From the sequence record HM035024: 50,661 bases of DNA; one strand, 5' to 3'. Origin of the DNA: Shigella phage Shfl1. The position numbers and the translations under genes are program-made. Below, piece by piece: positions 3,748-50,661 of the stretch (within the stretch, counting starts at the first letter, position 1; the number at the start of each line of letters is the position of its first letter). The notes beneath the pieces were generated by a model that was given only the letters and a program-made list of their open reading frames with translations, searched no databases and had not been told where the DNA came from.

Positions 3748-4233
3748 ATGTTGAAATTAAACGAGATTAAATTCCCTGTAGTTTTTAACACTATTAGCTG
3801 CGGAAAAATAACCTGCCATAACAAAGATCGTGCAACAGATTCGTCATTCAATGAGTGTCATCCGTCTATTGTTGGCAATCTCATTGAACTTCATAACAAT
3901 CACAACCCCGATAACATCCCATCTCTTCCATATTATGTTGAGTATGCTGGTCCTGGTTGGAAGGCTGGTCGAGCAATCTTTCACTCGTCAAAGCCAGAAA
4001 TCAAGCTATCGCTACAGCGCACTCAGATCGAGAACATGCCATTGAGCGCAACGCTAAAAGGTATCCAGCTTGATAGCGAATCCTGGCTTGAAATCACCGC
4101 TACACCGAAAACTATTGAGGTACACGATGATGTGGTGATTCTCCTGTTGCATTACGGCGGCTTTAAGCACAAGACTGTATCAGGTGAAATAAGCATTAAG
4201 CGCGGAACGCTTGTACGCTACGAGGTGAAATAA
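3748..4233 (+). CDS. hypothetical protein (161 aa)
   Basis: ORF preceded by motif, TATAAT and AAGAGGAAA RBS. Confidence 0.6.
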   Translation: MLKLNEIKFPVVFNTISCGKITCHNKDRATDSSFNECHPSIVGNLIELHNNHNPDNIPSLPYYVEYAGPGWKAGRAIFHSSKPEIKLSLQRTQIENMPLSATLKGIQLDSESWLEITATPKTIEVHDDVVILLLHYGGFKHKTVSGEISIKRGTLVRYEVK

Positions 4234-4296
4234 TGAGCAACTGGTATAACGAACATGTAATGCAGTTTTACCGCAATCGCATCAAGAAAATTTTGA

Positions 4297-4316
4297 ACAG
4301 CACGAATTGCTAAACC
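4297..4316 (+). promoter_or_regulatory. conserved motif variant ACAGCACGAATTGCTAAACC with TATAGT 18 nt downstream
   Basis: TGaTATAGT 4335-4340 inside inverted repeat AAGGCCA/TGGCCTT. Confidence 0.5.
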
Positions 4317-4380
4317 TTCCGCAAGGCCATTTGATATAGTGGCCTTATTGAAGCACGGCAACCAATCAGAGGAATTAGCT

Positions 4381-4587
4381 ATGGCTACACGACTCACTCA
4401 GTGGCAGATTTACGACAAGGCATCACGCCTACGCGAATCACTTCGCGGATTGACAGCAAACGACAGAATGGAGATTATCGGGCACGCTTTGCACGAACTC
4501 ACGCCTCAGGACGTAACCTATCATTCATGCGGCAATAAATTCTGGAACGTAACATTCGAGGTAAAGAAAGATGAGCAAAACTCATAA
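4381..4587 (+). CDS. hypothetical protein (68 aa)
   Basis: Start trimmed to ATG 4381 after conserved leader CAACCAATCAGAGGAAT. Confidence 0.5.
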   Translation: MATRLTQWQIYDKASRLRESLRGLTANDRMEIIGHALHELTPQDVTYHSCGNKFWNVTFEVKKDEQNS

Positions 4588-4858
4588 GTTAAAAATTGCC
4601 CCGATCCATTTCATCGGTGTAATGAACGGCACAAAAACGGCAGAGTTCCGCATTAATGACCGCAACTTCCAGCCTGGCGATATCCTGGAGCTATGCGAGT
4701 TCGATCGGGGTGAGTTTACCAGGTGGGAAGTACATGCCAGGGTATCCGATGTTACAGACGTGACGCCATACATCAATAGCGGGTATGACGAGCAAGAATG
4801 CGACTTCACGCAATACGTGATGTTATCAATAAAACCTTACAGAAAGGTTAGACCATGA
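4571..4858 (+). CDS. ASCH-like (DUF3850-type) domain protein
   Basis: N-terminal pattern K-x-H-x-LKI-x-P-x-HF-x-GV-x-NG-x-KT-x-EFR-x-NDR-x-F-x-PGD matches the ASCH/DUF3850 signature from memory. Confidence 0.4.
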   Translation: MSKTHKLKIAPIHFIGVMNGTKTAEFRINDRNFQPGDILELCEFDRGEFTRWEVHARVSDVTDVTPYINSGYDEQECDFTQYVMLSIKPYRKVRP

Positions 4859-5493
4859 AATTTGAGTGCGTATCAAGTAGCGGATCTGGTTTCAAGTGGG
4901 GTAAGGTCTACGAAGGCGCTCGCGTCAATGACAATAGATTCGTCATCACGGATGAGCGCGGTAGAAATGTTAACGTTGTCCGGCGTCACGAATACCAGGA
5001 AATACTCCTTCCGTATGGCGGTAGCTCAAAATATATCTTCCATCGAATCGTGGATGGTGTTAAATTTAAAGACGTAATCGAAGCAATCAACCAACTGCAT
5101 AATAAAGAGGTCAAATTTATGAAATTCGAATGTATCAGTGATAACACCAAAAAATTTACCGTTGGCAAAATCTACGATGTGCCTACTGAGCACGCAAAGC
5201 ACACTGTAGCACTGACCGACGACACGGGCCGCCACCGCATTGCAACCGTAACGCACAACGGTGAAGGTCTTCGCTGGAATAGCGGCGGCACTAAATTCGC
5301 AACGTTCGGCAAGAAGCGCAAGCGTACTTTCTGCGTCAATGGCAAGGTTACAGCGAACAAGATCCACAACGTCAAGCCGTCAGAAGTTTACCGTAAGCCA
5401 GCGACGAAGTTTGAAGAGAAGGCAGATTTGTCTGGTCTGGCTATCGCTCTTGTTCTCCTTGTTGCTTCGATTTCGCTGCTGTTCATCATGTAA
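4855..5493 (+). CDS. membrane-anchored protein with tandem repeated domain (212 aa)
   Basis: Two copies of a KFEC(V/I)S...GK(V/I)Y module; C-terminal hydrophobic helix LSGLAIALVLLVASISLLFIM. Confidence 0.55.
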   Translation: MKFECVSSSGSGFKWGKVYEGARVNDNRFVITDERGRNVNVVRRHEYQEILLPYGGSSKYIFHRIVDGVKFKDVIEAINQLHNKEVKFMKFECISDNTKKFTVGKIYDVPTEHAKHTVALTDDTGRHRIATVTHNGEGLRWNSGGTKFATFGKKRKRTFCVNGKVTANKIHNVKPSEVYRKPATKFEEKADLSGLAIALVLLVASISLLFIM

Positions 5494-5500
5494 TGCTAAT

Positions 5501-5534
5501 GGGGAATCGGCTCTGAACGGTTCCCCTTTCTTTT
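5501..5534 (+). terminator. intrinsic terminator
   Basis: Hairpin GGGGAATCGG...CGGTTCCCC followed by TTTCTTTT. Confidence 0.5.
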
Positions 5535-5641
5535 GGAGAAAACACTATGCCAGACTTTTCTAACTGGAATAACGAGCCGCCATCATTTCAGGAGTTGCTA
5601 TTTTGCCTCCTGATCCTAACATTATCTCTTAAGGGTGTTTT

Positions 5642-5860
5642 ATGGCTACTATCATGACAGCAGAAGATGCAGCACACGATGCAGTGGAAGGGATGCGCCC
5701 AAATAGCTCCAGAATCGCCCACTACTACAAATCTGATGTGTCGGCAGTGCAATTGGTCCATGAAATTTTAAGGCTCCCACAAGTCGATTCAGCGCGCGTG
5801 GTGACGTGCTTAAAAAATTATTTTTGCATCACTATTAAAACGAATAGCACGAATTGCTAA
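5642..5860 (+). CDS. hypothetical protein (72 aa), doubtful
   Basis: ORF only; its 3' end runs through the conserved promoter motif at 5844. Confidence 0.25.
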   Translation: MATIMTAEDAAHDAVEGMRPNSSRIAHYYKSDVSAVQLVHEILRLPQVDSARVVTCLKNYFCITIKTNSTNC

Positions 5861-5863
5861 AAC
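5844..5863 (+). promoter_or_regulatory. conserved motif ATAGCACGAATTGCTAAAAC with TATGAT 18 nt downstream
   Basis: TATGAT 5882-5887 inside inverted repeat AGGGGAAT/ATTCCCCT. Confidence 0.5.
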
Positions 5864-5917
5864 CTATCAAGGGGAATGCGCTATGATTCCCCTACACCAA
5901 CAAACGAGGAATCACCA

Positions 5918-6364
5918 ATGAAACACTTAATTTGCATTGAAACGCCTAACGATGAATACACTCTTCACGGCATAGGAATGTTCAAAGGTCACTACATGAC
6001 AGCAAGTATTCATGATGCGCGTCTTTGCGATGGCGATCTGATGATTACGTCAAAAGAAGTAAATCCGTACATTATGCAGAATCTTGGCAATAACGAATAT
6101 ATGGCCTACGGCTGCAACGCCGTGTACAAGCATATCAAGATCCGCAAGCGTGTCGTGCGTGCATTCAAGAAGATTGCAATGAAATACTGGAAGATGAGCA
6201 AGAAGGACGCCGGACGCTGGGCGCGCAATGTTGCTGACTCGTACTTCTATCGTAACGGTGAGTCCTGCTACTTCCTGATCGATGAAATTATGGAAAACTA
6301 CGGTGGCGACTTCAGTCAGTGTAACTTTGACGATTGGGCTGACTATGAGATCAGTTGTTGGTGA
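5918..6364 (+). CDS. hypothetical protein (148 aa)
   Basis: Start trimmed to ATG 5918 after ACGAGGAA RBS and conserved leader. Confidence 0.55.
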   Translation: MKHLICIETPNDEYTLHGIGMFKGHYMTASIHDARLCDGDLMITSKEVNPYIMQNLGNNEYMAYGCNAVYKHIKIRKRVVRAFKKIAMKYWKMSKKDAGRWARNVADSYFYRNGESCYFLIDEIMENYGGDFSQCNFDDWADYEISCW

Positions 6365-6383
6365 TAGCACGAATTGCTAAAAC
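6364..6383 (+). promoter_or_regulatory. conserved motif ATAGCACGAATTGCTAAAAC with TAGAAT 18 nt downstream
   Basis: TGtTAGAAT 6402-6407 inside inverted repeat AAGGGCATT/AATGCCCTT. Confidence 0.5.
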
Positions 6384-6446
6384 TTGCTCAAGGGCATTTG
6401 TTAGAATGCCCTTCGTTGAGTTAAGCAACCAATCAGAGGAATCAAT

Positions 6447-6650
6447 ATGAAAACTATTACCGGAATGAGCAACGAAACGAGAACGCAGATCGTTAACATG
6501 CTAATCGGGATGGCTGACGATATTCAGAATAGCCATGTCGTTATTGATTCATGCAATCAGACTCGTGAGAGTAAATTTGAATCATCCGGCTACAAAATTG
6601 TTGAAGAAGAATTAACCATCAAAATCATTCGCGTACAGGAGAAAGCATAA
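6447..6650 (+). CDS. hypothetical protein (67 aa)
   Basis: ORF preceded by CAACCAATCAGAGGAAT leader. Confidence 0.5.
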   Translation: MKTITGMSNETRTQIVNMLIGMADDIQNSHVVIDSCNQTRESKFESSGYKIVEEELTIKIIRVQEKA

Positions 6651-7183
6651 TGGATAAAATCACAATTTGGGGTCAGACAATCAACCTGTTTCTCGGCACT
6701 TGCCGCGTGGCAATCTTTGACTTCGACGGAACACTGAGTGACGGCTCAAAACGTCTTCACCTGCTACCGACGAAAGATTTGCACTTGACGGAAAGCTGGT
6801 CTGAGTTTAACAGGGCGGCAATATTTGATAACCCAATCCATAGTACGATTGAAGTGATGAACTCTATGCATGCCTCTGGTCATTATGTGATCATTTTAAC
6901 TGGGCGAAGTGATGAGGTGCGTTACGAATCTGAGTTATGGCTTAAGCATCACGGCGCTCGATATGATTACTTAGTCATGAGGCCGCATACCGACAACCGC
7001 AAAGACACGGTAATGAAAGAAGAGGCTGTGCGCGCGATCGGCATTGATAACATTCTGGCGGCTTGGGATGACTCACCGCAAATTATTCCATTATTCCGTT
7101 CGCTTGGAATAACTACGTATGCTGTAGTTGACTATGGCGATAACGTTCACGATCATTTAAAATATCACGGGGTGGATGAATGA
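6650..7183 (+). CDS. HAD-superfamily phosphatase (polynucleotide 3'-phosphatase-like)
   Basis: HAD motif I FDFDGTLSDG (DxDGT); later motifs IILTGRS and AAWDDSP; resembles the T4 Pnk phosphatase domain. Confidence 0.6.
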   Translation: MDKITIWGQTINLFLGTCRVAIFDFDGTLSDGSKRLHLLPTKDLHLTESWSEFNRAAIFDNPIHSTIEVMNSMHASGHYVIILTGRSDEVRYESELWLKHHGARYDYLVMRPHTDNRKDTVMKEEAVRAIGIDNILAAWDDSPQIIPLFRSLGITTYAVVDYGDNVHDHLKYHGVDE

Positions 7184-37296: not shown

Positions 37297-39315
37297 GTGA
37301 CAATTAACATCAAGAAGCAAATCGCATTACTTGGCGAGGACTATATAAAACGCACTCAAGAACGATTCACTGTCGGTGAGGTCGTTCCTTATCCGTATCA
37401 GGTTGTTGCTTATGCCGAGATCGCAAAACGCCTGTCAAATTACGAGCATCCATTCTTTGTTAAAGCGTCAGTATCTGCGGGTAAAACAATCATATTCGCT
37501 ATGGTGGCAAAGCAGTGTCAAAAAATGGGCCTGAAAATGCTTGTGCTTGCCCGACAGGGTGAGATCGTCGATCAGGATAGTGAGGAGATCGACAACTTCG
37601 GGGTAACGAACTCCATCTTCTCAGCATCGCTTGGAATCAAGTCCTGCTACTTCCCGATCGTGGTTGGCTCTGAGGGTACGGTTGCAAATGGCCTCGACAA
37701 TGAGTTGGCTGATTTTGTCCCGCATGTAATTGGGATCGACGAATGTCACCAGGTGGATTGGGAAGACCTTGCTCAAGCCATCGAAGGAAAAGAAACGATG
37801 GAGCAGATGAGGGGCGAGAAAGGGAAAATTATTATGGACGGGGAGATTCCTCTGATTGGTAATGACGGGAAACCTTTACTTGGAACTAAGCGAAGCCAGT
37901 ATACGATCGTAATCATGGAGATGATGCGTCGCTGTAAAGAGATTCACGGGCATGACCTCAGAATATTTGGCATGACAGGATCTGAATTTAGGGGCGTTGT
38001 TCCGATTCTGGTGGAGAATCCAAAGGCGTTAGGATTCTGGCGTGAGCGCGTAACTGATATCGACACAAACTATCTGATTGAGTTTGGCTCTGTTGTGCCG
38101 ACGATATTCGGTTCGACTGACGGAGTACACTACGATCTGGATAAGTTCAAGGCATCAAGCGAGGACGGCGTACAGGACTTTGCAGAGAAAGATATGAAGG
38201 CAATGGAAGATGAGATCCTTCATGATAAATCTCTTACTCAGCGAATCATGCAAATGGTCGCCAAAAAGGCTGAAGAACGTAACGCGGTTCTGATTACATG
38301 CGCGGGTGTGCGTCACTGTAAAGAGGCGGCGGCGGCACTGCCTCCAGGAAGCACCTATGCAATAATCACTGGCGACACAGACACCAAAACGCGCAAGAAG
38401 ATTCTGGACGATGTAAGGGCCGGGAAGATTAAATACACCTTTCAGGTAATGGCTCTCACTACTGGCGTTAACGTTCCAAATTGGGATTTCAGTGTCATAC
38501 TCCGCAAGATAGGATCTCTCACTCTGTTGATTCAGCTTTTGGGTAGGGGTATGCGGCTGCTTAAATCATGGCAGGTTGCTGAAGGAATGGTTAAGCAAGA
38601 CCATCTGGTATGGGATTTCGCTGGCACTATGGATGAGTTGGGCCAACTTTATTTCGATCCGATACTTGAGCAGGCGCAATTCCAGAAGCGTTTTGAAAAC
38701 GGCAAAGACCCGAAAACGTGTCCTAAGTGTGGTTGCGTTAATAGCTTCTACGCTCGCCGATGCGTTAACGTTATAGACGGTGAGAGATGCGATCACTTCT
38801 GGACTTCTCAGATTTGCGAGGACCAGGTTGATGAGCGAACCGGGAAAATTCTTGTTAAAGGATGTGGTGCCGAGAATGACGTTGTCGCCCGAGTTTGTCG
38901 TTGCTGTGATGTGTCACTTGTCGATCCTAACCTGAAATTGTCCGGCAAGGCGTACACCAAGAATGACTGGTATGAGGTCAAGAATTTTGAGGTAACGCTA
39001 ACCAAAAACCAAAAGGGCGTGATATACAAATACACGCTGATTAACGATGATGGTGATGAGTTCAAGGCGTATGAAAAATTCTTCCCCGAGTCCGACTCTA
39101 AGATTTGCGGTACGCTATGGAAAACTAAGGGTGTATTGCCTCATGTGTCAGATCCTAAAATGCGTCGCTACTTTATCGGAATGAAGAACGCAATCAAGAT
39201 CGTGCAGTACTCACATCATATTGCTCATCCGGTACGAGTCACACACCGACGCAACCAGAAGAAGGAAGATATTATTTCACGTAAAGATTTCGGTATGGAG
39301 GATATCCCGCAATGA
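37297..39315 (+). CDS. SF2 helicase (DEAD/DEAH-box-like) with C-terminal zinc-finger region
   Basis: Walker A SVSAGKT; DExH box GIDECHQ; C-terminal Cys clusters CPKCGC...CDHFW and CRCC; GTG start. Confidence 0.7.
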   Translation: MTINIKKQIALLGEDYIKRTQERFTVGEVVPYPYQVVAYAEIAKRLSNYEHPFFVKASVSAGKTIIFAMVAKQCQKMGLKMLVLARQGEIVDQDSEEIDNFGVTNSIFSASLGIKSCYFPIVVGSEGTVANGLDNELADFVPHVIGIDECHQVDWEDLAQAIEGKETMEQMRGEKGKIIMDGEIPLIGNDGKPLLGTKRSQYTIVIMEMMRRCKEIHGHDLRIFGMTGSEFRGVVPILVENPKALGFWRERVTDIDTNYLIEFGSVVPTIFGSTDGVHYDLDKFKASSEDGVQDFAEKDMKAMEDEILHDKSLTQRIMQMVAKKAEERNAVLITCAGVRHCKEAAAALPPGSTYAIITGDTDTKTRKKILDDVRAGKIKYTFQVMALTTGVNVPNWDFSVILRKIGSLTLLIQLLGRGMRLLKSWQVAEGMVKQDHLVWDFAGTMDELGQLYFDPILEQAQFQKRFENGKDPKTCPKCGCVNSFYARRCVNVIDGERCDHFWTSQICEDQVDERTGKILVKGCGAENDVVARVCRCCDVSLVDPNLKLSGKAYTKNDWYEVKNFEVTLTKNQKGVIYKYTLINDDGDEFKAYEKFFPESDSKICGTLWKTKGVLPHVSDPKMRRYFIGMKNAIKIVQYSHHIAHPVRVTHRRNQKKEDIISRKDFGMEDIPQ

Positions 39316-39728
39316 TTACAGACAAAGGAGATTACTTAGAGTTTTACGAGCGAGATCCCAGCGACACTCGAAAGGAGGACGCGCACCAGGTAGATTGCGT
39401 GTCCTGGCTGAAATACAATTTCCCACACCTTCTATTTTGGCACACTGTCAATGAAGGTGAAAAAACAATCACTTCAGCACTCAGGGATGAGCAGGCTGGA
39501 TTACTTAAAGGCGTGTCAGACTTCGTTATCCTGATTGGTGTAAACTCACGCCACCCGTTCGCAGCTATCGAACTCAAACGGGTTAATAAGTCCGGCAAAG
39601 GAAAGGCATCACCAGTCAGCGATAAGCAAAAGGAATTTCTCCGTAAGGTTCGCGAACGCGGTGGATTCTCTGCGGTGGCTTACGGATTTGAGCAATTCAA
39701 GATCGCAATTTACGAAATGATGAAATAG
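39312..39728 (+). CDS. VRR-NUC domain nuclease
   Basis: PD-(D/E)XK-type core VSDFVILIG ... AAIELKRVNKSG ... SDKQKEFL typical of VRR-NUC. Confidence 0.55.
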   Translation: MITDKGDYLEFYERDPSDTRKEDAHQVDCVSWLKYNFPHLLFWHTVNEGEKTITSALRDEQAGLLKGVSDFVILIGVNSRHPFAAIELKRVNKSGKGKASPVSDKQKEFLRKVRERGGFSAVAYGFEQFKIAIYEMMK

Positions 39729-39795: not shown

Positions 39796-40509
39796 ATGAA
39801 AGACTTCAATGATATTGAAACCATAGACTTTGCAGAAACTGGTTGCTCATTTACTCGCGAAGCAATAGCATCAGGCGGTTATTATCAGGCGCTAAAAACG
39901 CCAACATGCAAAGAGATTTCAGGTCGTCGATATAAGGGTACAAACACACCTGACGCCGTTCGTGATTTATGGTCGACTCCGCGCGAGGTTATTGCATACC
40001 TTGAGGGGCGATACGGAAAATATGATCTCGACGCTGCGGCAAGCGAAGAAAATAAAGTTTGCGATAAGTTTTATTCTCAGGAAACAAACTGCTTAAAACG
40101 TTGGTGGGGTAAAAATAAGCATGTGTGGCTAAATCCCCCTTATAGCCGACCTGATATGTTCGTCAAGAAGGCGATCGAGCAAATGGAGCACAACAACCAG
40201 ATCGATATGTTGTTACCTGCCGATAACTCGACGGCGTGGTTTACTGAGGCGCGACAGCACGCGGCTGAAATCATCTGGATTGAAGCGGATTTGACTGAGG
40301 ATATCGACGGGAATGAGTACGCACGATCAGGTCGCCTGGCGTTCATATCCGGTGAAACAGGAAAGGCGGTTGACGGCAACAACAAAGGTTCGGTAATTTT
40401 CATTATGCGAGAACTTAAAGAGGGTGAGACACAGCAAACTCACTATATCCCAATCACAAGCATTTGCCCTTCAGTGAAAAACAAACGCGCAAAAGTGAGG
40501 AAATTATGA
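39796..40509 (+). CDS. dam: DNA N6-adenine methyltransferase (phage Dam-like)
   Basis: Catalytic motif NPPYS (WLNPPYSRPDMF). Confidence 0.65.
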   Translation: MKDFNDIETIDFAETGCSFTREAIASGGYYQALKTPTCKEISGRRYKGTNTPDAVRDLWSTPREVIAYLEGRYGKYDLDAAASEENKVCDKFYSQETNCLKRWWGKNKHVWLNPPYSRPDMFVKKAIEQMEHNNQIDMLLPADNSTAWFTEARQHAAEIIWIEADLTEDIDGNEYARSGRLAFISGETGKAVDGNNKGSVIFIMRELKEGETQQTHYIPITSICPSVKNKRAKVRKL

Positions 40510-48443: not shown

Positions 48444-48500
48444 AATTATTTCCTCGTTTACTGTTGATGGGATGACTATACCATCCACCCCATTTATGCG

Positions 48501-48518
48501 TTTAACAAAAAGTGCTAT
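48501..48518 (-). promoter_or_regulatory. conserved motif (minus orientation)
   Basis: Reverse complement ATAGCACTTTTTGTTAAA; TATAGT (plus 48475-48480) within inverted repeat GGATGG/CCATCC. Confidence 0.45.
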
Positions 48519-48679
48519 TCTATAACTTCCTTTTGAACGACCTTGATCTCATCAAAGAAGATATTCCTGTCATTCTCAGTGAGATTCTTGATCTCGTTAG
48601 CTTTGCTCTCGGTTGAGCATATCTCGATCAGTTCGTCACCTTCATAATAGATGGTCCCAACAACGCAATATACGATCAT
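48515..48679 (-). CDS. small hypothetical protein (54 aa)
   Basis: Hand translated; ATGA overlap with upstream gene; GGAGG RBS; 3' end overlaps promoter motif. Confidence 0.35.
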   Translation of the reverse strand: MIVYCVVGTIYYEGDELIEICSTESKANEIKNLTENDRNIFFDEIKVVQKEVIE

Positions 48680-49056
48680 AATTTTTCCTCCAGCACTTCA
48701 CGGATGCGGTTTATTGCGTCCAGCTTATCGCAATCCCAACGAGTCGTTCCGTTATCCGGTCGCTCTTCGAACGCGAGACTCACCTCTTCGAGAAGGTTGT
48801 CAATGATAGCCTCCTTCTCGTCACCGCCCAGCTTTCCGAACTCAACCGATCCTACGTAACGATTGATATAAGCAATCATGCTCTGATGTTCTTCAATGGT
48901 GAATATATCCGTGATACTGATCCCGGTATCTCGCTGAGTGATAACAACCCGGTTGCTGGGGTGGATTATCCCGCCCACCAGGCGATTGCAAATCTCAACT
49001 GTGAAACCTTTCTCATTTGCGCGGTCAATTGCTTCCTGAAGTTTTGAATCTGTCAT
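48676..49056 (-). CDS. hypothetical protein (126 aa)
   Basis: ORF preceded by conserved leader CAACCAATCAGAGGAAT. Confidence 0.5.
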   Translation of the reverse strand: MTDSKLQEAIDRANEKGFTVEICNRLVGGIIHPSNRVVITQRDTGISITDIFTIEEHQSMIAYINRYVGSVEFGKLGGDEKEAIIDNLLEEVSLAFEERPDNGTTRWDCDKLDAINRIREVLEEKL

Positions 49057-49123
49057 CTCGTCATTCCTCTGATTGGTTGATGTGTTAAATATACCCCGAT
49101 TACCTTCGGGGCGTTTAGCAATT

Positions 49124-49141
49124 CGTGCTATTAAGCGATAT
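49124..49141 (-). promoter_or_regulatory. conserved motif (minus orientation)
   Basis: Reverse complement ATAGCACGAATTGCTAAA; hairpin CCCCGAAGGTAATCGGGG then TATATT. Confidence 0.45.
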
Positions 49142-49466
49142 CGAACTCAGCGGCATATGCTTTCTTGAAGCCAGCTTCACGCATGGTGCGCTTGCTGATT
49201 TTGCGAGGGAATTTGTACTGGCTGTTAGGCTTAATCCACCAAAAGCAGGCAGTTTCACGAACGATTTCATATTTACCATAGCGGGTGAAGGTGTCACGTT
49301 CAGCGTCCGGCTGATAAATACAGGTCAGGAATTTAGCTGCATTTTCTTCAGTTTTGATTTCTTCCCATACGAAGGAATCCATACCGTTAACTTTGCAAGC
49401 TACCATGATGTACTCAACGCCGTTTTCGATTTTGATGATTTCGTTACCGCGATTTTCGTATTTCAT
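49131..49466 (-). CDS. hypothetical protein (111 aa)
   Basis: ORF downstream of motif. Confidence 0.5.
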   Translation of the reverse strand: MKYENRGNEIIKIENGVEYIMVACKVNGMDSFVWEEIKTEENAAKFLTCIYQPDAERDTFTRYGKYEIVRETACFWWIKPNSQYKFPRKISKRTMREAGFKKAYAAEFDIA

Positions 49467-49529
49467 TTTCCTGCCCCTGATGTGTATCTCGTTTCGATGA
49501 GGTAATTATGCCAAATCACACCGATCGAG

Positions 49530-49548
49530 TTTTAACAAAAAGTGCTAT
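49530..49548 (-). promoter_or_regulatory. conserved motif (minus orientation) overlapping 3' end of methyltransferase-like gene
   Basis: Reverse complement ATAGCACTTTTTGTTAAAA. Confidence 0.4.
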
Positions 49549-50236
49549 TTGCGATTGCTTTGAAAAATCCACGCGGCGACAGCGATCGTATCAACTTCGT
49601 TTTGGCAGACTTGCCGCCCAGCTTGTTATGCTGTGCAGAGTACCCGTCAGGAAGGTTTACAGGTTTTCTCTCCGGCATGACAAAATCGTCCGAGGTCCAA
49701 AGGCACGTCTTTTTCGGGTAAGCATCGCGCGGCGCAATATACATAGGGAACCAGGGATGTGAGTCATTCTCAGGAAGGTAGCCGCCATACTCCCAGGGAT
49801 TGAATGAGTGATCTGGTTTTCTCCAGGCAGATGACAGGACGCTAACCGGATTCTCAATGATGTAGGTCACGCCCAGGGCATCGCCAATATTCGCAGCAAT
49901 CCGTGCGGTTGCAACAGCCTTCTCCTGGAATAACGGATCGCGCTCACGCTTACTTGCAAAGTGCGCGGCACCACTAACAGCCAGGTCGGTGCATGGAGGA
50001 AATGCCATGATGAAATCTGGCTTGCCATACACACCCGCGATCGCATCACGTTCGAACTTCTCATCAATGAAGACGTTCACATACTCAATATTCGGATGCT
50101 CTACCCGGGCGTTGTACTTTGCATAATCTCCGTGATCGGCCCCGTCAAAGTTGAAGCACATTACCTTATGACCTCGCTTAGCCAGTTCATGACCAGCAAG
50201 GCCGGAGCCATCGAATAATGACCAGATTAATTTCAT
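49532..50236 (-). CDS. C5-cytosine-methyltransferase-like protein (short, divergent)
   Basis: Motif-I-like LFDGSGLAG, motif-IV-like FPPCTDLAVSG (Pro-Cys but Thr in place of Gln), motif-VI-like IIENPV; only 234 aa. Confidence 0.4.
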   Translation of the reverse strand: MKLIWSLFDGSGLAGHELAKRGHKVMCFNFDGADHGDYAKYNARVEHPNIEYVNVFIDEKFERDAIAGVYGKPDFIMAFPPCTDLAVSGAAHFASKRERDPLFQEKAVATARIAANIGDALGVTYIIENPVSVLSSAWRKPDHSFNPWEYGGYLPENDSHPWFPMYIAPRDAYPKKTCLWTSDDFVMPERKPVNLPDGYSAQHNKLGGKSAKTKLIRSLSPRGFFKAIANSTFC

Positions 50237-50445
50237 TTCGTTACCTCCTTGAATACCGTTTTTCCGTCATTGGTCAGGAATCGATCCCACCCATTCATTG
50301 AACGGAAAACGCCGATTTGATTTTGATGATTGTCAGTCGCAAAGTAACCGCCATCAATAAGGTAGATCTCATATACTGATTGATTCGTGAAGCTGTCGGT
50401 GCTGACGCTAATGCATCGCACAGCACATTCAAATTCTGGTTCCAT
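50233..50445 (-). CDS. hypothetical protein (70 aa)
   Basis: ORF preceded by conserved leader CAACCAATCAGAGGAAT. Confidence 0.45.
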   Translation of the reverse strand: MEPEFECAVRCISVSTDSFTNQSVYEIYLIDGGYFATDNHQNQIGVFRSMNGWDRFLTNDGKTVFKEVTK

Positions 50446-50504
50446 TGCATGATTCCTCTGATTGGTTGATGTGATGAATCATACCCTGCCAACATGGATA
50501 AGTC

Positions 50505-50522
50505 GTTAGCAAAAAATGCTAT
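50505..50522 (-). promoter_or_regulatory. conserved motif (minus orientation)
   Basis: Reverse complement ATAGCATTTTTTGCTAAC; TATGAT downstream on minus strand. Confidence 0.4.
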
Positions 50523-50661
50523 TCCAATAGTTGCTCATTATTCCATCAATACTGGAATAGTTGGAATAATTTTGATTGTGATTGATTGCGAATGATGAAA
50601 CGTGATTATTGCATGATGTGCAACAGTTGTTTGATTTGTTGCTGAGATTGCAATGATTGTG

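Follow-up and report, generated by a model that had tools for sequence, protein, structure and literature searches.

A compact "Dcm-like" cytosine-C5 DNA methyltransferase predicted in the early gene cluster of Shigella phage Shfl1 and related to the phage trigger of retron Ec86/Eco1

The small "Dcm-like" C5 methyltransferases of phages are an already known family: some 1,500 phage genomes have an annotated member, and experimental work has identified these proteins as the phage Dcm to which retron Ec86/Eco1 responds. Their function was described for phage K42, which is KarlJaspers-like (bioRxiv 10.1101/2023.08.16.553469, later Wang et al., Cell Rep 2024;43:114857). In that study a 711-bp "dcm" gene was lost or disrupted in four of four K42 escapers of the retron, and K42 Dcm expressed alone in E. 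coli was toxic only when the retron was present. LC-MS found high levels of 5mC in the msDNA with the wild-type enzyme but not with a C82A/E128A/K175A/K176A mutant, and changing either C of the CCTGG in the msDNA abolished defense. The same work reported that 34 of 35 Ec86-sensitive phages encode a Dcm of the K42 kind, that in the host MG1655, which is itself dcm+, the retron was untriggered and msDNA 5mC was not high, and that K42 Dcm caused no marked growth defect in McrBC+ K-12 lacking the retron. Later papers treat the link between retron Ec86 and K42 Dcm as established. In the BASEL study, C5 methyltransferases were abundant in the Drexlerviridae and showed no simple link to restriction resistance. 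We found no data on the family in the methylome literature, including the BF23/T5 methylation paper.

The annotation label "Dcm-like" comes from E. coli Dcm/M.EcoRII, a 472-aa enzyme that methylates CCWGG, carries Pro-Cys-Gln (PCQ) and a variable region of about 158 aa, and is encoded adjacent to vsr. The eukaryotic DNMT3 enzymes target CpG and act as tetramers. A third group of possible relevance is that of the CmoX carboxymethyltransferases, whose defining features are the motif SPPC, Arg at the position of M.HhaI N304, and linkage to a CmoA gene (PMC12783734); SpCmoX (PDB 8yf3; Nat Commun 2025, PMC12783734) has 333 aa and a full target-recognition domain (TRD), and its gene neighbors those for CmoA and CmoY.

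The window analyzed here is the whole 50,661-nucleotide stretch of DNA from Shigella phage Shfl1 (sequence record HM035024). The features discussed below are as follows.

49532..50236, minus strand: mini cytosine-C5 DNA methyltransferase gene (phage "Dcm-like," PHROG 757), 234 aa, ATG start
Residues 6-12 of the mini-methyltransferase: motif I, SLFDGSG
Mini-methyltransferase, motif IV: FPPCTD, with the catalytic Cys82
Residues 128-130 of the mini-methyltransferase: motif VI, ENP
Mini-methyltransferase, motif VIII-like segment: K175-K176-T177-C-L-W180
Mini-methyltransferase, motif X-like segment: I-R217-S-L-S-P221-R-G223
50233..50445, minus strand: upstream 70-aa ORF (PHROG 16851), whose stop overlaps the methyltransferase ATG
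48483..50464, minus strand: accessory block of about 2 kb missing from phage T1 (blastn of the window against T1)
39796..40509, plus strand: T1-type Dam N6-adenine methyltransferase, 237 aa, NPPY motif (PF05869; homolog of T1 ST20)

Translation of the methyltransferase ORF gave a 234-aa protein with LFDGSGLAG at residues 7 to 15, FPPCTDLAVSG at 79 to 89, and IIENPV at 126 to 131, exactly the motif strings that an earlier sequence-only reading of this DNA had picked out. That reading had also called the protein about 100 aa shorter than typical C5 methyltransferases, which agrees with the 327 aa of M.HhaI, and had pointed to a Dam-like gene at 39796..40509, which matches Pfam PF05869 at E=1.5e-69. 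The methyltransferase ATG is preceded by a strong Shine-Dalgarno sequence, AAGGAGGT, and overlaps the stop of the 70-aa ORF as ATGA; cotranscription and translational coupling of the two genes are therefore probable. The 70-aa ORF is not kept beside the methyltransferase in other phage lineages.

The window is that of a T1-like Tunavirus, and its closest megablast match is vB_EcoS_SA30RD (94.8% identity), where a tblastn search recovered an ortholog covering all 234 aa at 98.3% identity. The SA30RD ortholog (OL960579.1 SA30RD_53, 4157-4705 of the extracted locus) is annotated as a 182-aa "DNA methylase" with an internal start; it is because of this choice of start that motif I is missing from the annotated protein, the 234-aa frame itself being intact. 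In Shfl1 the gene is part of the block of about 2 kb that T1 does not have. This block forms the end of the leftward early cluster that is nearest the promoter and consists of five leftward ORFs of 54, 126, 111, 234, and 70 aa, those other than the methyltransferase belonging to PHROGs 3002, 20265, 29431, and 16851. Since T1 has no homolog of the mini-methyltransferase by tblastn, the gene is accessory; T1 does carry the Dam gene. One of the K42 escapers had lost a 2,262-bp, four-gene region that included dcm (bioRxiv 10.1101/2023.08.16.553469), and its survival without that region indicates that blocks comparable to the one in Shfl1 are dispensable. The Dam gene of the window is unrelated to the C5 enzyme and physically unlinked to it. 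Directly upstream of the Dam gene, on the plus strand at 39312-39728, is a gene for a 138-aa protein with a VRR-NUC nuclease domain (PF08774, E=5e-13), the counterpart of T1 ST21, which is annotated as hypothetical.

The protein belongs to a large and widespread family. PHROG 757 ("DNA methyltransferase") matches residues 1 to 231 at E=1.3e-84, and tblastn found homologs in 1,519 phage records spanning the Drexlerviridae, Dhillonvirus, Vequintavirinae, Klebsiella Webervirus, and Arthrobacter phages, under annotations ranging from "hypothetical protein" to "Dcm-like C5 cytosine methyltransferase." A large protein database held 4,937 homologs at E<=1e-3, and an exhaustive search gave 970 clusters at 50% identity, nearly all of them 210 to 260 aa long, so the small size is a property of the family and does not reflect truncation. 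By contrast with this abundance, the family is invisible to curated sequence models: neither Pfam PF00145 nor NCBIfam matched the Shfl1 protein even at E<=10, which likely accounts for the frequent "hypothetical protein" labels. Among 82 members of the family, just 2 matched PF00145 at E<=0.01; precomputed PF00145 matches exist for a few close homologs. A search of PDB sequences with the single protein found nothing, and a search with the family profile found just DNMT2 (E=1.4). Membership in the C5 methyltransferase superfamily therefore rests on structure and motifs. The domain also occurs in multidomain relatives, including a 658-aa ORF in Burkholderia seminalis (4974-6950 of the extracted locus) and phage fusions of 1,126 and 1,397 aa (BFVD A0A6J5SE15 and A0A6J5NPY6, one annotated as Helicase/UvrB), so the compact core serves as a module of large enzymes as well. 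Thirty-six records labeled "Campylobacter phage" (MG065682.1, MG065680.1, and others, of about 135 kb and about 50 kb) contain homologs 41 to 55% identical; because genomes of these sizes resemble Vequintavirus and Drexlerviridae coliphages, the host labels may be unreliable.

The closest characterized relative is the KarlJaspers protein bas06_0055 (Bas06, QXV82308.1), to which the Shfl1 protein is 56% identical over 229 aa (E=6e-88). Both belong to PHROG 757, are of nearly the same length (234 aa in Shfl1 and 236 aa in KarlJaspers), are encoded in the early-gene cluster of a Drexlerviridae phage, and carry PPCTD, ENPV, and KKTCLW; the four residues replaced in the K42 mutant, C82, E128, K175, and K176, have identical residue numbers in the Shfl1 protein. 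The two differ in that KarlJaspers is a Hanrivervirus and Shfl1 a Tunavirus and in 44% of their residues. From this homology to K42 Dcm, we infer that the Shfl1 protein makes 5mC and triggers retron Ec86/Eco1.

Conservation was assessed in an 82-sequence family alignment (A1). The residues of motifs IV and VI are strongly conserved (C82 in 97%, E128 in 98%, N129 in 92%, and P130 in 98%), and the most conserved positions overall are P80, C82, G89, E128, N129, P130, P147, D171, Y173, K175, T177, W180, P188, R217, P221, G223, and A227, with K175, T177, and W180 conserved in 96 to 98%, R217 in 97%, and Phe at position 79 in 87%. The residue after Pro-Cys, which is Thr83 in Shfl1, is Thr in 87% of the sequences and otherwise gives PCD, PCE, or PCN. 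Gln, whose replacement by Thr was noticed in the sequence-only reading, occurs there in no family member examined. The acidic residue of motif II is Asp in 91% of the family and Asn29 in the Shfl1 protein; Asn is likewise present in the KarlJaspers enzyme, which is active.

Structure prediction and profile comparison, which the sequence-only reading had called for as a check, both point to a C5 methyltransferase. An AlphaFold2 model built from alignment A1 (mean pLDDT of 94.8, pTM of 0.90) has a class I SAM-methyltransferase fold with C5-methyltransferase topology, and in a Foldseek comparison of the model with the PDB, ranks 1 to 46 were the catalytic domains of DNMT3A, DNMT3B, and DNMT3C (E down to 4e-8), followed by DIM2. 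Profile comparison with hhalign gave E values of 9e-5 to 4e-4 for DNMT3A, 0.063 for M.HhaI, and 0.17 to 0.29 for E. coli Dcm; the DNMT3A and M.HhaI sequences used were exact matches to PDB chains. The extended hhalign alignment to DNMT3A places SLFDG/SLFDG, PPCTDLA/SPCNDLS, IIENPV/LFENVV, and KKTCLW/RARYFW in register. Motif I, SLFDGSG, follows strand 3-7 of the model and aligns to SLFDGIATG of DNMT3A, the family consensus being SLFD-x-[TS]-G. P81-C82 aligns to SPCN of DNMT3A and to FPCQ of both M.HhaI and Dcm, so that the Thr of the Shfl1 protein stands where DNMT3A has Asn, and motif VI is ENP, with Pro where the canonical Glu-Asn-Val has Val. The spacing from motif IV to motif VI (Cys82 to ENP) is 46 residues, as in DNMT3A. 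K175-K176-T177-C-L-W180 is paired with R-A-R-Y-F-W of DNMT3A by hhalign at low confidence and lacks the Q and the second Arg of Q-x-R-x-R.

Beyond W180 the protein departs from the usual architecture. The segment from motif VIII to motif X (W180 to R217) has 37 aa, compared with 96 in DNMT3A, 139 in M.HhaI, and about 158 in E. coli Dcm; it contains no recognizable motif IX-like element and is too short for a sizeable TRD. The segment I-R217-S-L-S-P-R-G, which is followed by a helix at 222 to 232, resembles by eye G-R-S-W-S-V-P of DNMT3A, and with the C-terminal helix of the model it may be read as a motif X-like element. The hhalign alignment is unreliable there, and its pairing of IRSLSPRG with the TRD loop of DNMT3A was distrusted because of low confidence beyond W180. 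The Shfl1 protein is thus a C5 methyltransferase catalytic core with just a vestigial variable region. The earlier statement that there is no obvious TRD holds as far as length is concerned, but the short segment is nevertheless well conserved; judged from the family alignment, such conservation of the variable region is unusual for a TRD.

Orthology with E. coli Dcm was considered and rejected, as hhalign aligned just motifs IV to VI (E=0.17 to 0.29) and the lengths are 234 and 472 aa. What the two would share is 5mC chemistry and the presumed target motif, while the family differs in having PCT and a 37-aa region. It also differs in its neighborhood: a tblastn search with E. coli Vsr matched at 1 of 80 bacterial loci carrying the mini-methyltransferase, and no Vsr gene was listed at the annotated phage loci examined or found among the tested window ORFs near the gene.

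Conceivably, the family is more closely related to the catalytic domain of eukaryotic DNMT3 than any other viral or prokaryotic proteins are, in which case it may act as a dimer and its specificity may not be simply CCWGG. The two groups have motif variants in common (SLFDG, PC-x-DL, R/K-x-x-x-x-W, and R-S-x-S-P), and the TRD is even more reduced in the phage family. Identity to the DNMT3A/3B catalytic domain is just 12 to 18%, however, the Shfl1 protein has neither regulatory domains nor a DNMT3L-type partner, and the resemblance may come in part from the shared small TRD and the many DNMT3 entries in the PDB. We consider this relationship doubtful. If it were true, these proteins would be the smallest self-sufficient sequence-reading C5 methyltransferases, with an undescribed mode of DNA recognition.

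A protein this small might alternatively be a catalytic-core remnant, inactive or dependent on a partner, like DNMT3L or a split methyltransferase, and unable to methylate alone. The absence of a canonical TRD and of motif IX, the lack of any score against PF00145, and the Asn in place of Asp at motif II are all compatible with such a remnant. Against it stand the intact and conserved catalytic motifs, the activity of K42 Dcm alone with the same Asn29 variant, and the wide conservation of the family at this length, which argues for a self-sufficient enzyme. The neighborhood likewise offers no partner: besides the methyltransferase itself, no neighbor gene is shared across seven phage lineages, and no recurrent neighbor was found across the 80 bacterial loci, which were collected with a closer alignment (A2). 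Large neighbor "families" produced by clustering were discounted, as they were out-of-frame ORFs inside the methyltransferase gene. A remnant of this kind is very improbable. The sequence-only reading had left three candidates side by side, and the one that required a partner is argued against by the stand-alone K42 enzyme together with this lack of a conserved neighbor.

Another of those candidates, an enzyme making a different C5 modification, was considered in the form of transfer of a nonmethyl group, such as carboxymethyl from Cx-SAM to yield 5-carboxymethylcytosine, as in phage CmoX. R217 probably sits, on sequence comparison, at the position of M.HhaI Asn304, where the Arg of CmoX contacts the carboxymethyl group of Cx-SAM. 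DNMT3A, though, also has Arg at this position (its sequence was checked) and yet uses SAM, so that the Arg of the motif X-like segment is equally found in a methyl-transferring enzyme. The Shfl1 protein has A-F-P-P-C where CmoX requires S95-P-P-C98, and with FPPC in place of SPPC it differs from SpCmoX also in its genomic company, CmoA and CmoY both being absent from the Shfl1 window; for CmoA this was established by tblastn of the whole window with E. coli CmoA (E<=10). Finally, the homolog K42 Dcm makes 5mC by LC-MS in a cmoA+ host. We regard carboxymethyl transfer as extremely improbable, and a different C5 modification finds no support, given the 5mC of the homolog, the absent CmoA, and the Arg shared with DNMT3A. 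The remaining candidate, a minimal cytosine-C5 methyltransferase, is the one favored by the predicted fold, the motif conservation, and the published 5mC activity of the 56%-identical homolog.

The target of the Shfl1 enzyme is taken to be CCWGG by analogy to E. coli Dcm. Against a maximal-order Markov expectation, the Shfl1 genome contains 110 CCWGG sites where 110 are expected; in T1, which lacks the gene, the observed/expected ratio is 0.82, a difference of about 1.8 standard deviations in a single pair of genomes. These counts fit protection of CCWGG but do not prove it. It is also possible that the enzyme is a genuine C5 methyltransferase of the family with a specificity other than CCWGG. 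A minimal TRD, possibly in a DNMT3-like dimer, might then read a shorter or different site (such as CC, CCW, or CWG), and the retron result would reflect a site overlapping with CCTGG. For K42 Dcm, too, CCWGG was an assumption by analogy, the Dcm of the MG1655 host neither triggers the retron nor gives high msDNA 5mC, the family shows no TRD likeness to E. coli Dcm, and DNMT3A, whose reading is limited to CpG, has a larger variable segment than the 37 aa of the family. Several observations weigh the other way. Defense was abolished by a change at either C of the CCTGG in the msDNA, CCWGG is not avoided in the Shfl1 genome, and the conservation of the segment from motif VIII to motif X across the family suggests one shared specificity; that K42 Dcm did not markedly impair growth in McrBC+ K-12 without the retron would fit a Y-mC context such as C-mC-WGG. 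On balance, a different specificity seems unlikely.

With high confidence, we therefore assign the gene product to the compact "Dcm-like" family of phages, as an orphan enzyme that uses SAM to methylate cytosine in DNA at C5, with CCWGG as the most likely target. In the scheme that we propose, the N-terminal Rossmann half would bind SAM via motif I (SLFDGSG). The Pro-Pro-Cys-Thr loop would supply Cys82 for the attack on C6 of a flipped-out cytosine, which Glu128 of ENP would contact as in other C5 methyltransferases, and the methyl group would then pass to C5. Reading of the target would rely on the 37-aa vestige that separates motif VIII from motif X and on the conserved loop at 146 to 176, much as in DNMT3. 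The gene would be expressed early from the leftward operon, so that replicating phage DNA becomes methylated, most likely at the inner cytosine of the CCWGG sites, and such methylation could protect the phage from EcoRII-type restriction in hosts with or without Dcm. The cost would be methylation of the msDNA stem-loop of retron Ec86/Eco1 and, with it, abortive infection in retron-carrying hosts. The anti-restriction role is one that we infer, and it is put no more strongly than this because of the BASEL results on methyltransferases and restriction resistance.

For annotation, the outcome is a firm assignment of two orphan methyltransferases to the Shfl1 genome, Dam and a Dcm-like C5 enzyme. 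The latter is predicted to protect the 110 CCWGG sites of the genome and should expose the phage to retron Ec86/Eco1. Since E. coli BL21 carries this retron, the liability bears on the choice of host and on host-range prediction. The compact family to which it belongs is abundant, yet missed by the Pfam and NCBIfam models.

Several short palindromes are strongly avoided in the window by the same Markov measure (observed versus expected): RCCGGY (0 versus 27), CTGCAG (0 versus 7.5), GCCGGC (0 versus 6.6), GGCGCC (1 versus 9.4), CAGCTG (2 versus 10.8), CTAG (20 versus 67), and GGCC (71 versus 119). RCCGGY is avoided in T1 as well (1 versus 24 expected), and GATC shows no notable avoidance in the window (267 versus 321). 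A scan for consensus promoters and terminators near the methyltransferase gene returned nothing beyond shuffled expectation. Upstream of the leftward operon, the noncoding stretch 50519-50570 contains the interlocking inverted repeats CTATTCCAATA / TACTGGAATAG and ATTATTCCATCAAT / ATAGTTGGAATAAT; from 50465 on, the window corresponds to the T1 genome at its extreme right end, and the repeat region could be a regulatory or terminal element.
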